In this document: positions 3,852-61,002 of the stretch, piece by piece
Numbering within the stretch: the stretch's first letter is position 1
Layout: every line of letters starts with the position of its first letter
Sequence record: PZ452596.1
Strand: one strand, 5' to 3'
Source: a phage
DNA length: 64,000 nt
Program-made: the position numbers and the translations under genes
The notes under the pieces: model-generated
Databases searched by the model: none
Told to the model about the DNA's origin: nothing
What the model saw: only the letters and a program-made list of their open reading frames with translations

Positions 3852-4141
3852 TTATCCTCTTTTAGCTCTTGACGATAATAACATATCATAGTTTTCTGGT
3901 CATGTACATATCGTTTTACATCATTAAGCCAAATACGAAATTCCTGGGAATCTTCAAATGGCATACCGACCCAAGCTTTACCATCAATAACTTTAACTTG
4001 CCAAGATAGTTTAGCTTCGTCATATGACTTTATCTGTACAGGCCAATTAGGATGAACTGTTTCTTTCTTTACTTCTAGAGGCTTTGTCGAACAACCAACT
4101 AGAAGACCAATAGATAATATTACTGCTGATAGTTTAATCAT
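3842..4141 (-). CDS. predicted lipoprotein
   Basis: N-terminus MIKLSAVILSIGLLVGCS: signal peptide with lipobox L-V-G-C. Confidence 0.5.
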   Translation of the reverse strand: MIKLSAVILSIGLLVGCSTKPLEVKKETVHPNWPVQIKSYDEAKLSWQVKVIDGKAWVGMPFEDSQEFRIWLNDVKRYVHDQKTMICYYRQELKEDKCK

Positions 4142-4491
4142 TTAGAAAGGTCCTGGATGTCTTCTGCGAACTTGTTGAAGGAGTTGTTGATTTGTTTTTC
4201 AACCAATCCTGGCTTATGAGCCACCACATCCGCCTTCTTTGCGTCTTTGCGCAGTTTTTCATTTTCACGCTCAATAGCAGCAATTGCCTCACGATTTTTA
4301 TTATTCATCGCATCAATATAATTATACTGAATTCGCAAATTATTTAATGCTAAGGCGTTTTCATTGGCCGTTTTTGTAATTTCAGTAACTGATGTTTCTA
4401 ATCTTTCTACCTTATTTTTTAAAATAATAGATGTTCCGCCAAATGCTATTACAAGTAATAGCAATCCAGCTGTAAAATTACTTACATGCAT
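4138..4491 (-). CDS. hypothetical membrane-anchored protein
   Basis: 117 aa; N-terminal hydrophobic helix then charged, coiled-coil-like region. Confidence 0.5.
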   Translation of the reverse strand: MHVSNFTAGLLLLVIAFGGTSIILKNKVERLETSVTEITKTANENALALNNLRIQYNYIDAMNNKNREAIAAIERENEKLRKDAKKADVVAHKPGLVEKQINNSFNKFAEDIQDLSK

Positions 4492-4988
4492 AAAGTTTTA
4501 ATAACCTCTATAATATCGTCTTGAGAAAGACCGTTAATTAAAATATGATGTTCAGCTGGAGATTTAGAAATTTTAAAGCATGCCTCAACATCTTCTGCCA
4601 TATCCGATGCACTACGATTTGGATTACTAATTCCAAGGCGGTGTTTTCCCGTCAAAGGATTAACGATGATATAGCATTTGCAGCTATTGATATGAACATT
4701 AGGCTGAGTCTGATTAATGAACACTTCACAATCATACTTAGCGAGTTGATTTTCTAAAAAGACTTTCATTTCCTCAACCGCATCAGGAAGCATATCACGG
4801 GCTTGCTCAAGACGACGATTTCGATATTCTTTAATGGTCGTTTTCCGCTTGACTTGCTTTGCTAAATCTTTCTTAAGATCGGTGATATATCCAACTCGAC
4901 GATTTCCTTTGAATACAGAAATCCCATCTGTAGTATCACCGTATGCTTCAACGACCATTTCAGTAGTAATAAGCTGTAAATCCATCAT
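4482..4988 (-). CDS. alc: Alc, inhibitor of host transcription
   Basis: 168-aa ORF between pseT and rnlA, matches T4 Alc size and position. Confidence 0.85.
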   Translation of the reverse strand: MMDLQLITTEMVVEAYGDTTDGISVFKGNRRVGYITDLKKDLAKQVKRKTTIKEYRNRRLEQARDMLPDAVEEMKVFLENQLAKYDCEVFINQTQPNVHINSCKCYIIVNPLTGKHRLGISNPNRSASDMAEDVEACFKISKSPAEHHILINGLSQDDIIEVIKTLCM

Positions 4989-4994
4989 AAAGTC

Positions 4995-5049
4995 CTCATG
5001 TTATGTCAGTAAGTCTACTATAACACAACACGAGGGACTTGTAAACAGC

Positions 5050-5050
<1 letters not shown>
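4995..5050 (-). promoter_or_regulatory. early promoter candidate upstream of alc
   Basis: minus strand GTTTAC -18- TATAGT. Confidence 0.4.
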
Positions 5051-6637
<1,587 letters not shown>

Positions 6638-23644: not shown

Positions 23645-26600
23645 ATGGCTACTTTAAAACAAATACAATTTAAAAGAAGCAAAACTGCAGGAGCACGTCC
23701 TGCCGCTTCAGTATTAGCCGAAGGTGAATTGGCTATAAACTTAAAAGACCGTGTACTTTTTACTAAAGATGACCAAGGAAATATCATTGATCTTGGTTTT
23801 GCTAAGGGCGGTAGTATTGACGGGAATGTTATTCATATAGGAAACTATAATCAAACTGGTGATTATACTTTAAATGGCGTCTTCACTCAGACTGGTAATT
23901 TTAATTTAACTGGTATTGCTCGAGTAACTCGCGATATTATTGCTGCTGGGCAGATTATGACTGAAGGCGGAGAACTTATTACAAAAAGTTCAGGTACAGC
24001 GCATGTTCGTTTTTTCGATGGCAATAGTCGCGAACGTGGAATCATTTATGCCCCGGCTAATGATGGTTTAACTACACAAGTACTTAATATCAGGGTTCAA
24101 GACTACGCCGCTGGTAGCGAAAGCACTTATGCATTTTCAGGCAGTGGCCTATTTACTTCACCTGAAGTATCAGCATGGAAATCTATTTCGTCTCCACAAA
24201 TTCTGACCGACAAAGTTATTACAAACGGGAAGAAGGCAGGAGATTATGATATCTATTCATTAGCAAATAACACCCCATTATCTGAAAGCACTACTGCTAT
24301 TAATCATCTTCGTGTCATGCGTAATGCCGTTGGTTCTGGTATTTTCCATGAAGTTAAAGATAATGATGGGATAACCTGGTATGCCGGTGACGGGTTGGAG
24401 GCTTATCTTTGGTCGTTTACGTGGTCCGGTGGGTTGAAAGCGGGTCATTCTATTTCTATAGGTACCCCAGGCGGTCCAAAAGGATATTCTGAATTAGGAA
24501 CGGCCTCAATTGTTCTTGGGGATAATGATACCGGATTTAAATGGCATCAGGACGGATATTATTTCAGCGTCAATAATGGAACAAAAACGTTTTTATTTAG
24601 TCCCAGAGAAACAACTAGCCTAAGAAAATTTGTAGCTGGATATTCTACTAACGGAACCGATTTAACTACTCCTCCAACTGAAAATTATGCTCTTGCTACT
24701 GTAGTAACATACCACGATAATAACGCGTTTGGAGATGGTCAGACTCTTTTAGGATATTATCAAGGCGGTAACTATCATCATTATTTCCGCGGCAAGGGTA
24801 CTACAAACATTAATACTCATGGCGGTTTGTTAGTTACTCCAGGTAATATTGATGTTATTGGCGGTTCTGTTAATATTGATGGTATAAATAATTCTTCTAC
24901 CCTGCTATTTAGAGGCAACACAACTGGTAGTAGTTCAGTTGATAATATGACAATTTCCGTTTGGGGCAATACGTTTACTAATCCTAGTGTAGGTAATCGT
25001 AAAAACGTCATGGAAATTTCTGATGCAACTAGTTGGATGAGCTATATTCAAAGACTTACAACAGGTGAAGTAGAAATGAACGTTAACGGTTCATTTGAAT
25101 CATCTGGTGTTACTGCTGGAAATAGAGGAGTTCACACAACAGGCGAAATTTCATCTGGAGCAGTGAATGCGCTTCGCATTTGGAACGCAGATTATGGAGC
25201 TATTTTTAGACGTTCAGAAGGTAGTCTTCATATTATTCCAACTGCTTACGGTGAAGGTAAACACGGCGATATCGGTCCACTTCGCCCGTTTAGTATGGCT
25301 TTAGATACTGGTAAAGTTACTATTCCAGATTTACAATCAAGTTACAATACGTTCGCTGCTAACGGTTATATTAAATTTGTTGGTCATGGAGCGGGTGCCG
25401 GCGGTTATGACATTCAATATGTTCAAGCGGCTCCTATTTTCCAGGAAATCGATGATGATGCTGTAAGCAAATATTATCCTATTGTTAAACAGAAGTTTTT
25501 AAACGGTAAATCCGTTTGGTCTTTAGGTACTGAAATTAATTCAGGTACATTTGTTTTACATCATTTAAAAGAAGACGGAACTCAAGGACATACGTCTCGT
25601 TTTAATCAAGACGGTACTGTTAACTTCCCAGATAACGTTCAGGTCGGCGGCGGTGAAGCTACTATTGCTCGCAATGGTAATATCTTCTCCGATATTTGGA
25701 AACCGTTTACTTCTGCAGGTGATACTACAAATATTCGCGATGCTATTGCGACTCGTGTTTCGAAAGAAGGCGACACGATGACCGGTAAGTTGATTATTAG
25801 AAGAGATTCTGACGCTATTAACTTAGCTGCGCCTTCGACAACTGATGCAAGTTACCTTCTTTCTACAGGCGCTGGTGAAAATCTATGGTATATTGGTAAA
25901 GGCGGCGCTGATAATACTGTATCATTTTACAACTATAAAACCAATGGGGCTGTGCAAATTAACTCTATTGGTGAAATCGCGCTGATTCCACAAGGTGCTG
26001 CAACATTTAACTTCAACCGTGATCGTCTCTATATAAATGGGTCTCAATGGACTGCACATCAAGCTGGTGACTGGGTTAACCAATGGCGTCAAGAAGCTCC
26101 TATATTTGTGGATTTTGGTAGTGTCGGCAATGACTGCTATTATCCTATTATTAAAGGAAAATCTGTTATTACGAATGAAGGATACGTATCTGGTGTTGAT
26201 TTCGGTATGCGCCGTATCACTAACCAATGGGCTCAGGCTATTATCCGTGTTGGTAACCAGGAAAATGCTAGCGATCCGCAAGCTATCTTCGAATTCCACC
26301 ATAATGGAAACATGTACGTTCCTGACATGGTTAAAGCTGGAGTAAGATTATCAGCTGGTGGAGGTGACCCTGTATGGACAGGCGCATGTGTTGTTATTGG
26401 TGATAATGACACTGGGTTAGTTCATGGCGGTGACGGTCGTATTAACATGGTTGCAAATGGAGTGCATATTGCTTCATGGTCGTCCGCTTACCATCTCCAT
26501 GAAGGTCTTTGGGATACCACCGGTGCTTTGTGGACTGAACACGGAAGAGCTATTATTTCTTTTGGTCATTTAGTTCAAGAAAGTGATGCCTATTCCACAT

Positions 26601-34899: not shown

Positions 34900-35457
34900 T
34901 TAAATGGAAAGATACCATCCATTGTAGTTGCTTTTTCTTACAACCTTACGAAGGTCTTCTCTATCACCGATGAATTTCGGAGTGTACTGGATGACACCTG
35001 GATGAATTTCTTTAGTGTTGAATATAATTATACAGTCAGCGACTTGGTGATTCAGAATGGGCCCTAGATTTATTCCAGAACCGTATGGATACTCTCCGCT
35101 GCATCCGGTTGTTACCGAAATCCATCGTGAGTCAGTTTGATGTGTTTTGACTTCTACACGAAGCCCACAGTATTTTGGATGCGCCAATACATCCCATGCA
35201 TATGTATATGGGTCATTAACATCCTCTTGGCCTTTGTTAACATACCCGCTTAGCCAATCTGCTACAAAAAATTCTGCGTACACAGCGATACGGCATCTTT
35301 CGATAACTTCTGCCTTATCCTGATTTGGGTTTTGTTTTAAAGAGTATCTTGCAGTATCAGCAATTTTGACCTTCATTTCATTGGTTAAATCGCTGTTCGA
35401 TAGAGTAAATGTCGGAATCTGAAATAGTCTCTGTAGCCCCGGATTCGTTTTCTGCAT
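34900..35457 (-). CDS. denB: endonuclease IV (dC-specific)
   Basis: 185 aa, same length and position as T4 DenB. Confidence 0.88.
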   Translation of the reverse strand: MQKTNPGLQRLFQIPTFTLSNSDLTNEMKVKIADTARYSLKQNPNQDKAEVIERCRIAVYAEFFVADWLSGYVNKGQEDVNDPYTYAWDVLAHPKYCGLRVEVKTHQTDSRWISVTTGCSGEYPYGSGINLGPILNHQVADCIIIFNTKEIHPGVIQYTPKFIGDREDLRKVVRKSNYNGWYLSI

Positions 35458-35525
35458 TTAAACTTTCCTTTATGTCGGAATCACTGATATTCATATAATA
35501 AATCATAATTTCTCTTAAAACAAAA

Positions 35526-35537
35526 GGGCCGAAGCCC
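35526..35537 (-). other. UUCG-tetraloop hairpin immediately 3' of stop codon
   Basis: minus strand GGGC-UUCG-GCCC directly after TAA of the 64-aa ORF; identical copy at 35752. Confidence 0.5.
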
Positions 35538-35540
35538 TTA

Positions 35541-35735
35541 TTATTTGAATTGTGCAATTCTTTTCTCTAGACATTCAGCATAAGATTTCATTGAAATGAA
35601 CTGTGAAAGCAGCAGTTCTTGCTCAACTGCACTAACCGTTAGAAACTTTGCGCTTTCTAAAAATTTACTAAGCGCATTAATTTTGAGCATTAATTGATCG
35701 TATTCTTCTTTTACTCGTGCTTGATAACCTAACAT
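35541..35735 (-). CDS. hypothetical small protein between rIIB and denB
   Basis: 64-aa ORF flanked by two identical UUCG-loop hairpins. Confidence 0.45.
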   Translation of the reverse strand: MLGYQARVKEEYDQLMLKINALSKFLESAKFLTVSAVEQELLLSQFISMKSYAECLEKRIAQFK

Positions 35736-35751
35736 AATTTTCCTTAGTTAA

Positions 35752-35763
35752 GGGCCGAAGCCC
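35752..35763 (-). other. UUCG-tetraloop hairpin immediately 3' of rIIB stop codon
   Basis: identical 19-nt element TAAGGGCUUCGGCCCUU as at 35526. Confidence 0.5.
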
Positions 35764-36702
35764 TTATTTAAATTGTTCAGTAACGTCTTCAACTACTTCG
35801 TATTGGCAGGTACGCATTTTAGCGTCGTTGTAATCAATCGGAATTGATACTACATCGCGAGGATGTACTTTAACTTTTACAACTCGGCTGGTTGAACTGC
35901 CAAAGTGACGAATATAAGATTTAGAACACACATGCAGACCGCGAGAACAAGTTTGTGTATCATCGTCATTCACACGAGTACGTGGCATTTTAACTACTTT
36001 ACCCGGACTGTTATCAAATGTGTTTGAGTGACAGTCAAAGTAATTGCTGCGAACTACTTTCCAAGCATAGAAGTAACCATCTTCTGTAATTTCAATATCG
36101 TTTGCTACCAAGAAATCAAAGAGTCGAGATACCGCTTTTTGGCTTGGGTTTTCCAGCAGATTTTCCAAGAACGGAAAATAAAATTCAAAGTTTTCGCCTT
36201 TTTCCATCGAGTCAAGAATACGATCAACTAAACCGGACCGCAATTCGATATTTTGATAGAACAAGCTTCCACCTTCAATTCGAACATCGCCGGAAATATA
36301 TTTTTCAACAGCGCGACGAACATTAATTTTTTGCACAGCTTCTTCCAGCTTATCCGCTACAAGCAGATTAAGAATTTCCTGGAAGTTTGAATGAGTATTA
36401 GGAGTTGCGTTATAAGTTACGCCATCAACAGTAATTGAAATGAATTTTTTAGATGCATTCCAAATAATGTCAGATTTAGCAACTGGAGCAATAACTGCAT
36501 CGCTATTAACTTTAACTGTAATATCACCGCTAATAGTAACTTTAGGGTGTTTAGCTTCTTCAGCATTTTTCAAAACACGACGGATTGTGTCAACCGATAC
36601 ACCTTGCCAATCAGCCAATTCCTGTTGGGTGTAATTACCACTTGAATACAGTTTAACAATTTCAGCTTGTTCATTTTTGGTCAGGCATTTAATATTGTAC
36701 AT
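35764..36702 (-). CDS. rIIB: rIIB protein
   Basis: 312 aa, matches T4 rIIB. Confidence 0.95.
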   Translation of the reverse strand: MYNIKCLTKNEQAEIVKLYSSGNYTQQELADWQGVSVDTIRRVLKNAEEAKHPKVTISGDITVKVNSDAVIAPVAKSDIIWNASKKFISITVDGVTYNATPNTHSNFQEILNLLVADKLEEAVQKINVRRAVEKYISGDVRIEGGSLFYQNIELRSGLVDRILDSMEKGENFEFYFPFLENLLENPSQKAVSRLFDFLVANDIEITEDGYFYAWKVVRSNYFDCHSNTFDNSPGKVVKMPRTRVNDDDTQTCSRGLHVCSKSYIRHFGSSTSRVVKVKVHPRDVVSIPIDYNDAKMRTCQYEVVEDVTEQFK

Positions 36703-57826: not shown

Positions 57827-58189
57827 TTAAAAGAATTTAAATTTTTTCTTTGACCTTTTATTAAATGCATCTTGCAGTTGCATTGTAATACATTTTTCTA
57901 CATGAGGAGCTAACTCAGCTTTTCTTTCTTGGTCAAGAACAGCAAAGTCCATTACAACCTTTCCATCAACCCAATCCAGTTTAGTTACATACACTATATG
58001 TGTAGAACCATCTTCTAGTTTAATGACAATCTCCTGGATAACATTTTCCATAGCGGATTTAATTATCTTAAGAGACTCATTAAAAAGACGTTCTTTTCTT
58101 TCTTCTTCCCCCTCCGAAGAGGGGGATTCATCGATAATTTCTAGATCTAAGTCTAAATCATCTTTATTCATTAAATTCTTCCATATCAC
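57827..58189 (-). CDS. 40: head vertex assembly chaperone gp40
   Basis: 120-aa ORF between 41 and uvsX. Confidence 0.8.
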   Translation of the reverse strand: MIWKNLMNKDDLDLDLEIIDESPSSEGEEERKERLFNESLKIIKSAMENVIQEIVIKLEDGSTHIVYVTKLDWVDGKVVMDFAVLDQERKAELAPHVEKCITMQLQDAFNKRSKKKFKFF

Positions 58190-59345
58190 TTAACTGCTCG
58201 AGGTCAGTTTCTAAATCAGCAGCTGATTTACTTTTACTTTCTGGAGATTTAAATTTTTCAACCTTTGAGTTAATCAATTCATCAACTTCAGCTTCAACAA
58301 TTTCATTACTATCAATAGCACCTAACTGATAAGCACGTTTAATAGCATCTCGGAATGGTTGATGCTTAAATAAAGGACCCCAGAATGTAGTGCAGTTGGT
58401 ATCTTTTGCACGCCAAGATTTTTCTTCGCGAATCATCTCGCCGGTTTCTTCATCAAGAAATTCACGAGCATACCAGCCATTTTTAGGTTTTACCACGAAT
58501 CCTAATTCTAGAGCCATATCTAACAATCCAGAATAAGGATCGATACCACCGTCAAATTTAACATCAATAAAGAATTTACTTTTTTCTTTAACGGTACGAG
58601 ATTTTTCTACATTTAGAACAAATTGATACCCCTGAAGATCAGAACCATCTTTAATTTGGCGTTTACCGATAATGAATACAGTATCAGCCGAATACATTAC
58701 GCCTGTACCACCTGTCATCACGGTTTTACTAAACATTTCAATTGTTTCAATTGTATGGTTAACCGCAACACATGGAATATTTTTAATGCTAAAATAAGGA
58801 GTAACAATACGGAATAATGACTTCAGTGATTTAGCACGAGTCATATCTGCCACAGATTTTTCATTCAAGGCATCTTCCGTTTCTTTCTTAGAAGCCATAT
58901 TACCGATTGAGTCGATGAATACAATAACCTTTTCACCACGCTCAATAGCTTCAAGCTGATTCACCATATCAATTTTCAGCTGTTCAACTGACTGAATTGG
59001 CGTATGAATTACTCGTTCCGGGTCAACTCCCATGGATCGCAAATAAGCTGGAGTAATACCAAATTCGCTATCATAGAATAGACAAACCGCGTCAGGATAT
59101 TTGTTCAAATATGCCGCAACCATAGTCAAAGACATATTTGATTTAAAGTGTTTAGAAGGCCCTGCGAAAATAGTTAAACCAGACTGCATACCGCCATCAA
59201 TCGCACCAGAAATAGCAATATTAAGCATTGGGATTTTTGTACGGATTACATCCTTTTCATTAAAGAATTTAGATGTAGTCAGTTCAGCAGTCATTTTAGA
59301 AGTGGAAGCTTTAATCAAACGGGATTTTAAATCTGCAATAGACAT
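58164..59345 (-). CDS. uvsX: UvsX recombinase (RecA-like)
   Basis: 393 aa, matches T4 UvsX. Confidence 0.95.
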   Translation of the reverse strand: MSIADLKSRLIKASTSKMTAELTTSKFFNEKDVIRTKIPMLNIAISGAIDGGMQSGLTIFAGPSKHFKSNMSLTMVAAYLNKYPDAVCLFYDSEFGITPAYLRSMGVDPERVIHTPIQSVEQLKIDMVNQLEAIERGEKVIVFIDSIGNMASKKETEDALNEKSVADMTRAKSLKSLFRIVTPYFSIKNIPCVAVNHTIETIEMFSKTVMTGGTGVMYSADTVFIIGKRQIKDGSDLQGYQFVLNVEKSRTVKEKSKFFIDVKFDGGIDPYSGLLDMALELGFVVKPKNGWYAREFLDEETGEMIREEKSWRAKDTNCTTFWGPLFKHQPFRDAIKRAYQLGAIDSNEIVEAEVDELINSKVEKFKSPESKSKSAADLETDLEQLSDMEEFNE

Positions 59346-59422
59346 TCATTTTTTCCATAGGCATCATTATATTTTCCTCACTGGTTAAAGATAGAGTAAT
59401 TATAACACAATAAATTTAGGCA

Positions 59423-60271
59423 TTAATCAACTGCTATTGGATGAATAGCATTAAACTTATGAAATGCTTCTGATTTTTCTTTACGCGAAACGCACATGCG
59501 AAGAACCTTTAATGGTTCGTCTTCTTCACCCAACGATTTTCGTTTTTCAATATTAGAAGTTTTCCAACGAGCTTGCTCTGGAAACTCTCTATTGATTTGC
59601 TCGAGCGCTCTATTATGTTTAGAATTACTGCGAATTGAACTGCACCCGCCGGGAGCTTGTGCTTTTCCGGATACAACTAGATATTTGAACAAGGCCAAAT
59701 GCGGATAACCTTGATTAATTAAATTGAGAAATGCATACATATCTTCGCACAAATCAATTTTTCCATACCCAATTTGTTCTGTCGTAAGTTTTCCAAGGTC
59801 ATACCATGTATTCGTGAATCCATATGAATTTTCACGATAATTACCCCAAGATGAAGTAATTTTAAAAATAGGTAGACGAGCATGACCGTGATAATATCCG
59901 CAATCCATAGCATCTTCAACGTATTGAATCAATTCGTAGAATTGTTCACGGGTTAATTGATTGACTTTATCTACACAGCGACGATCATCTCTTTTTCGCA
60001 TTGAGCTCATACGAATAGTAGTATCATCGTCAATCATCCAGATTCGTTGACCTGCATACATATCAGTAATTGCTTTACGAGTACCAGCAATTCCATTTAC
60101 GTCATCAGGAATAGTTATAATTTTAGCTCTAGACCCATAGGCATCATAATAAGCTTTTTCTTCATGTTCACGTACTACAATATGGGGTTCATAATCAGTC
60201 GGAAACATATCAAGGGCAGAAACTGCCCCGACACGCTGATAACTTGGAATTACGAATTGAATCATTTCCAC
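59423..60271 (-). CDS. putative GT-A-fold glycosyltransferase at the beta-gt locus
   Basis: 282 aa; FVIPSYQR N-terminus and IWMIDDDTT (DxD) motif; does not resemble T4 beta-glucosyltransferase. Confidence 0.6.
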   Translation of the reverse strand: MEMIQFVIPSYQRVGAVSALDMFPTDYEPHIVVREHEEKAYYDAYGSRAKIITIPDDVNGIAGTRKAITDMYAGQRIWMIDDDTTIRMSSMRKRDDRRCVDKVNQLTREQFYELIQYVEDAMDCGYYHGHARLPIFKITSSWGNYRENSYGFTNTWYDLGKLTTEQIGYGKIDLCEDMYAFLNLINQGYPHLALFKYLVVSGKAQAPGGCSSIRSNSKHNRALEQINREFPEQARWKTSNIEKRKSLGEEDEPLKVLRMCVSRKEKSEAFHKFNAIHPIAVD

Positions 60272-61002
60272 TCACCGTTATAATCTTTTTTCACAATATG
60301 AGTTTCGCCAGTATTCCACCAATGATCAACCAAGTAAAAATGACGAGAATATACATGAAGACTTCCAACATTCCATATAATAGAACCTGCTTTATACTGA
60401 CGAGTTGAATCGCCTGCATTCAAATCAGATACTAATTTATCTAATACGTATTTTTGCCATGCATAATCATTACGGAATCCGAAGACCACGTCATTTGAGC
60501 GCATGCTTACTACTGCATTGACTTTCTTATCACGAATCAGGTACTGTACTGTATTCGTACACATGAAATCTGACATACCATCTTTATTGTAGTCAAATTG
60601 CATGGATGGACGAGTATAAATCATGATACCACGTCGAGAATCAGGATTTTGACCAAGTTCAGCTAAACACATGTCATATTGAGCATAGTTATCTTCTGAC
60701 CAGATAGCCCAACCATAATTCGAGTTAATTTCACCTTTAGAAGATGCTACTTGTTGCCAAATCTTCGGTGTTTCACCCGGAATATCTTTAACGAACAAGC
60801 TCTTAGATTTATACCATTCAAGTTCACGCTGAATGTATTCATCATTAAGAGCGCCAAAAATAAACGGTTCATCTGCTACAAATGATGCGCCAATAATTTC
60901 AATAGTTTTAACACCAGTTTTATCAACTACGAAATCTTTTTCTTTTAATGCAAGCCCCAAATGAAGACGGATTTCTTCAACTGTCATAGAGTCACTAATC
61001 AT
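60262..61002 (-). CDS. 42: dCMP hydroxymethylase gp42
   Basis: 246 aa, ThyA-like fold; matches T4 gp42. Confidence 0.95.
   Translation of the reverse strand: MISDSMTVEEIRLHLGLALKEKDFVVDKTGVKTIEIIGASFVADEPFIFGALNDEYIQRELEWYKSKSLFVKDIPGETPKIWQQVASSKGEINSNYGWAIWSEDNYAQYDMCLAELGQNPDSRRGIMIYTRPSMQFDYNKDGMSDFMCTNTVQYLIRDKKVNAVVSMRSNDVVFGFRNDYAWQKYVLDKLVSDLNAGDSTRQYKAGSIIWNVGSLHVYSRHFYLVDHWWNTGETHIVKKDYNGEWK

Follow-up and report, generated by a model that had tools for sequence, protein, structure and literature searches.

The gene between uvsX and gene 42 of phage RB27: a probable T2/T6-type beta-glucosyl-HMC-alpha-glucosyltransferase and its allelic variants

We identified RB27_043, the gene between uvsX and gene 42 of Enterobacteria phage RB27, as very probably a T2/T6-type beta-glucosyl-HMC-alpha-glucosyltransferase (ba-gt), i.e., an enzyme that would add a second glucose to glucosylated hydroxymethylcytosine (hmC) in the phage DNA, giving gentiobiosyl-hmC. 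The gene was studied in a stretch of phage DNA of 64,000 nucleotides (PZ452596.1; the whole stretch is called the window below). The identification, as made in the initial annotation, is already published throughout and concerns a known gene in an annotated phage: RB27 appears in Table 1 of Thomas et al. 2018 with an alpha-gt (91% identity to T4's), with no b-gt, and with a ba-gt that is 99% identical to T2's (PMC6024577).

In the mechanical ORF list, the gene is a minus-strand ORF at 59423..60271 with a GTG start and 282 aa, whose translation begins MEMIQFVIPSYQRVG and includes IWMIDDDTTIRM; the initial annotation gave no strand. By chance, about 4e-5 open frames of 282 codons would be expected (both strands of the window, 35.5% GC), so this ORF is not due to chance. 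The 849-nt ORF is 100% identical to RB27 (KM607000.1/NC_025448.1), and RB27 positions 2288-27287 are 100% identical to the final 25 kb of the window. The length of 282 aa given in the initial annotation holds for the mechanical ORF from GTG, but not for the annotated orthologues in RB27, T2, TB37 and Geo, all of which start from the ATG at 60265 and have 280 aa. The two additional codons (GTG GAA) are probably not translated within the ba-gt protein; the gene 42 stop and the ba-gt start overlap as ATGA, and T2 has the same overlap. The placement of the gene between uvsX and 42 was borne out by the flanking ORFs, both on the minus strand (Table 1 lists the coordinates of all features). The order 42, ba-gt, uvsX is common to RB27, T2 and T6, in agreement with the earlier statement that T2 and T6 carry a different glucosyltransferase in the slot of T4 beta-gt; synteny of TAGT (TET-associated glycosyltransferase) with T4 beta-GT has also been reported (2026 AEM paper, PMC13390438).

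Table 1. Features of the ba-gt locus of RB27 (window coordinates)
Feature	Position	Strand	Remarks
uvsX recombinase, downstream neighbour defining the locus	58164..59345	minus	flanking ORF
ba-gt–uvsX spacer, 77 bp, without segA	59346..59422	minus	sequence comparison
ba-gt / TAGT CDS, RB27_043	59423..60265	minus	280 aa + TAA stop; CDS annotated in KM607000.1
GGCSSIR, residues 206-212	59630..59650	minus	conserved family motif; G206 89/90, G207 90/90, R212 87/90
E174-D175 ('ED')	59741..59746	minus	D175 90/90, E174 73/90; candidate catalytic base
DDD, residues 79-81	60023-60031	minus	codons GACGATGAT read directly; DxD motif
FVIPSYQR, residues 4-11	60233-60256	minus	family consensus IVIPTYxR; R11 90/90
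Gene 42, dCMP hydroxymethylase	60262..61002	minus	flanking ORF
GTG GAA, two extra codons 5' of the annotated ATG	60266..60271	minus	inside the end of gene 42

The RB27 protein has a single Pfam match, PF20691 (TAGT; 38.9 bits, gathering cut-off 27.5), and its PHROGs match is phrog_842, 'beta-glucosyl-HMC-alpha-glucosyltransferase' (E 2e-89); NCBIfam has no model for it. We compared the RB27 locus with its counterparts in T2 (three records), T6, T4 and two phages of the Durham Collection (TB37 and Geo). The ba-gt proteins of T2 and T6 (also called g-gt; PF20691 TAGT; PHROG 842) have 280 aa and are 99% identical to the RB27 protein. Only 2 of the 280 residues differ between RB27 and T2 (R11 and P251 in RB27, H11 and S251 in T2), and three substitutions separate RB27 from T6 (Y40, D55 and R106 in RB27 are N, G and H in T6); no difference in function is expected between the T6 and RB27 enzymes. 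The ba-gt of TB37 (OZ035850.1), an isolate separate from RB27, has the same amino-acid sequence as that of RB27 with 0 differences, the two genes differing by 18 silent nucleotide differences.

For conservation, we searched 1.84 billion cluster representatives exhaustively with HMMER, which yielded 336 relatives (E <= 0.001) and was used for the deep alignment; a word-indexed homologue search had returned 11 proteins. In the alignment of 90 near-full-length relatives (19–77% identity to the RB27 protein), R11, D80, D175 and G207 are invariant, and I6, P7, R63, I66, D79, D81, G186, G206, R212 and P229 are conserved in at least 90% of the homologues. The initial annotation had described FVIPSYQR and DDD motifs typical of GT-A enzymes; both motifs can be read in the sequence, and the three aspartates of DDD are found in 88, 90 and 89 of the 90 homologues, respectively. 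The structural model of the RB27 protein is a single Rossmann-like alpha/beta/alpha domain with GT-A topology, in which strand E3-7 covers the FVIPSYQR region (strand beta-1 and loop of the nucleotide-sugar-binding half of GT-A enzymes) and DDD directly follows strand E74-78. As modelled, the protein has a GT-A, GT2-like fold, and the TAGT of T6 has likewise been modelled as GT-A, sister to GT2 (2026 NAR paper, PMC13216743). A single-sequence search against PDB chains gave chance matches only (E > 1), and a profile search of PDB sequences with the 90-sequence alignment gave nothing significant (the only suggestive match is AvpGT, a GT2 enzyme, E 0.63), so the GT-A assignment rests on the structural model, not on sequence. 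Sequence searches found no solved structure for any member of the TAGT family. Cellular GT2-like GT-A enzymes (TarS, TarP, AvpGT, K4CP, SpsA and cellulose synthase) share only 8–16% sequence identity with the RB27 protein, and their acceptors are polysaccharide, teichoic acid or lipid-linked glycan, whereas the acceptor of the RB27 enzyme would be a sugar on DNA.

The proposed pathway starts with gene 42 next door, which supplies the hmC that replaces cytosine in RB27 DNA. The RB27 alpha-gt, beyond the window at a distance of about 12 kb (record positions 34949-36151; 3950-5152 of the fetched region), would then put one alpha-linked glucose onto most hmC residues, and ba-gt would transfer a second glucose from UDP-glucose, beta-1,6 onto the first, giving gentiobiosyl-hmC. 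By analogy with GT-A/GT2 enzymes, DDD would hold the metal and the diphosphate of UDP-glucose, the N-terminal IPSYQR loop with the invariant R11 would bind the nucleotide-sugar, and D175 would be the likely catalytic base; it is a candidate for this role in an inverting GT-A enzyme because, as in GT2 enzymes, it lies about 95 residues past the DxD motif. The RB27 ba-gt is presumably an inverting, metal-dependent transferase, the inverting mechanism being suggested by the beta-linked product and the GT2-like fold. In T2 and T6, beta-1,6-glucosyl-alpha-glucosyl (gentiobiosyl) hmC is made by ba-gt (PMC6024577). Deletion of ba-gt in T6 leaves alpha-glucosyl-hmC only and increases the sensitivity to the Brig1 glycosylase (PMC11078745), and T6 with g-gt deleted behaves in the same way in BapA assays (PMC13160076).

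TAGT homologues are diverse: 336 representatives were found at E <= 0.001, and the homologues occur together with alpha-gt, together with beta-gt or alone, with specificities that are mostly putative (PMC13216743), which would leave room for an RB27 enzyme that uses another sugar or acts directly on hmC, so that the RB27 modification is not gentiobiosyl-hmC. We consider this very improbable, as the RB27 protein is the same as that of TB37 and shares 99% identity with the T2 and T6 enzymes, whose product is gentiobiosyl-hmC (PMC13390438, PMC11078745), and no substitution in T2 or T6 falls in an invariant column, except T2's own R11H.

Taking RB27_043 as a T2/T6-type ba-gt, we predicted the sugar pattern of RB27 from that of TB37. 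The virion DNA of TB37, studied by HPLC/MS, contains about 1/3 5-hmdC and about 2/3 alpha-gentiobiosyl-mdC, with alpha-glucosyl-mdC at a low level; beta-glucosyl-mdC went undetected in the Durham phages (PMC13390438). Besides the identical TAGT protein, TB37 has a near-identical alpha-gt (99.5% identity to that of RB27), and the same T6-like pattern is therefore predicted for RB27. The RB27 virion DNA is predicted to contain about 2/3 gentiobiosyl-hmC, about 1/3 bare hmC, a trace of alpha-glucosyl-hmC and no beta-glucosyl-hmC, a pattern that should be T6-like rather than T4-like or T2-like.

Two allele classes of alpha-gt protein can be told apart, with about 91% identity between them: one contains RB27, TB37 and T2 (at least 99.2% identity among members) and the other contains T4, T6 and Geo. 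The RB27 alpha-gt shares 99.2% identity with that of T2 and 91% with those of T6 and T4, and the TB37 and T2 proteins are 99.8% identical to each other. This membership in the T2 class, together with the content of only about 5% gentiobiosyl-hmC in T2 DNA (PMC6024577), would fit a weak, T2-like allele in RB27, with DNA that is mostly mono-alpha-glucosylated and carries a few percent of gentiobiosyl-hmC. We regard such an outcome as highly unlikely: TB37 combines a T2-class alpha-gt with the ba-gt of RB27, yet has about 2/3 gentiobiosyl-hmC (PMC13390438), and R11 is kept in RB27 and lost in T2. The T2 case does mean that near-identity alone does not fix the ratio of mono- to di-glucose, since the T2 enzyme is near-identical to that of RB27 yet T2 DNA has so little gentiobiosyl-hmC. 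The alpha-gt class does not track the gentiobiosylation level; we considered it as a cause of the difference between T2 and T6 and rejected it, because TB37 has a T2-class alpha-gt and high gentiobiosylation (PMC13390438).

The R11 codon lies at 60233-60235 of the window, and T2 has H at this position despite R in all 90 homologues. The H11 allele is confined to seven T2 records and SV76, the record of the latter being as long as one of those of T2. The difference between T2 and T6, the latter with about 72% gentiobiosyl-hmC, is classical. The portions of the T-even phage literature that we consulted offer no explanation for the low gentiobiosylation of T2. We propose R11H as the simplest candidate cause, as T2 and TB37 have near-identical alpha-gt, R11H and P251S are the only differences between their ba-gt proteins, and their gentiobiosyl-hmC contents are about 5% and about 2/3, respectively. 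Extending this, we tentatively suggest, at a little short of an even chance, that a natural series of alleles at this locus governs how much hmC carries one glucose and how much carries two, with R11 enzymes (RB27, TB37) fully active, the R11H enzyme of T2 hypomorphic, and an amber codon 10 in one laboratory stock of T6. The single T2 substitution, and not alpha-gt or expression, would then cause the difference between T2 and T6. If so, RB27 would be T6-like in its sugars despite having a T2-class alpha-gt.

We note two further variants of the gene. The ba-gt of Geo (23868-24710 of the fetched region) carries seven substitutions as compared to RB27 (I50V, M89I, R95K, C97R, V101I, A202S and Q203H), and Geo DNA is intermediate, with hmC, alpha-glucosyl and gentiobiosyl forms at about 1:2:2 (PMC13390438). 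In the T6 record MH550421, codon 10 of ba-gt is TAG instead of CAG (region 4951-4953, corresponding to 60236-60238 of the window); because of this amber codon, the CDS is annotated from M20, with 261 aa and without the IPSYQR strand. The amber codon may be a stock mutation or a sequencing error. A truncation of the T6 reference protein by this codon was rejected, as AP018814/NC_054907 has CAG there.

T4 beta-gt (PF09198) resembles the RB27 enzyme in its slot downstream of gene 42, in the use of UDP-glucose and in having phage hmC DNA as its target. It differs in that it has 351 aa and a GT-B fold (PMC13216743) and directly attaches beta-linked glucose to bare hmC instead of extending alpha-glucosyl-hmC. 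The gene order in T4 also differs (42, b-gt, segA, uvsX), with the homing-endonuclease gene segA between b-gt and uvsX. BLASTP of the RB27 protein against T4 beta-gt (351 aa) gave nothing (best E 2.2 across 8 residues), which confirms the lack of resemblance noted initially. PF20691 being its sole Pfam match, the RB27 protein has no match to PF09198. The RB27 model consists of a single GT-A domain, and GT-B structures are absent from its top structural matches. The reading as a divergent beta-glucosyltransferase of the T4 type that acts on hmC directly, which the shared genomic position and the 'b-gt' gene label in KM607000.1 would favour, has next to no probability given the absence of both sequence similarity to T4 beta-gt and a PF09198 match, and given the modelled GT-A fold as opposed to the GT-B fold of T4 beta-gt (PMC13216743).

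The full label of RB27_043 in KM607000.1 is 'b-gt: beta-glucosyl-HMC-alpha-glucosyl-transferase'. We rejected the 'b-gt' part of such labels as evidence for a beta-gt, since the RB55 and RB59 records put the ba-gt product name on a T4-type b-gt. In RB55 (KM607002.1) and RB59 (KM607003.1), the gene at 24364-25419 (in each record) is 100% identical to T4 b-gt and its product is labelled 'beta-glucosyl-HMC-alpha-glucosyl-transferase'. In these RB records, the two unrelated enzymes cannot be told apart by product name.

A search of the phage collection found the RB27-type gene, at an identity of at least 90%, in 475 records and the T4-type b-gt in 29. Almost all of the 475 are records of Tequatrovirus phages of Escherichia, Shigella, Yersinia, Salmonella and Citrobacter. 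RB27 has no entry among the 15 of these 29 T4-type records that were listed. In this collection, ba-gt is the common state and T4 beta-gt the exception; the combination of alpha-gt and TAGT has been described as common, and the T4 combination of alpha-gt and beta-gt as rare (2026 NAR paper, PMC13216743).

Which host defences a T-even phage escapes is determined by the sugar pattern of its hmC, and the published defences concerned include type IV restriction (GmrSD, BrxU), the glycosylases Brig1 and BapA, and CRISPR-Cas. Resistance to Brig1 and BapA is conferred by gentiobiosyl-hmC but not by alpha-glucosyl-hmC (PMC11078745, PMC13160076). As RB27 has both alpha-gt and ba-gt, its profile of sensitivity to these defences becomes predictable. 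The annotation of ba-gt in RB27 is itself routine and leaves the understanding of these systems unchanged.

A scan for sigma-70 promoters around ba-gt found 10 sites, as compared to 10.2 expected in shuffled sequence, i.e., no excess. RB27, T2, T6 and TB37 share one and the same 77-bp spacer between ba-gt and uvsX (100% identity), whereas the adjacent gene differs at 18–43 nucleotides. The spacer contains ATGCCTAA, followed by 12 nt and then TATAAT, an arrangement resembling a T4 MotA-dependent middle promoter, which would serve uvsX.
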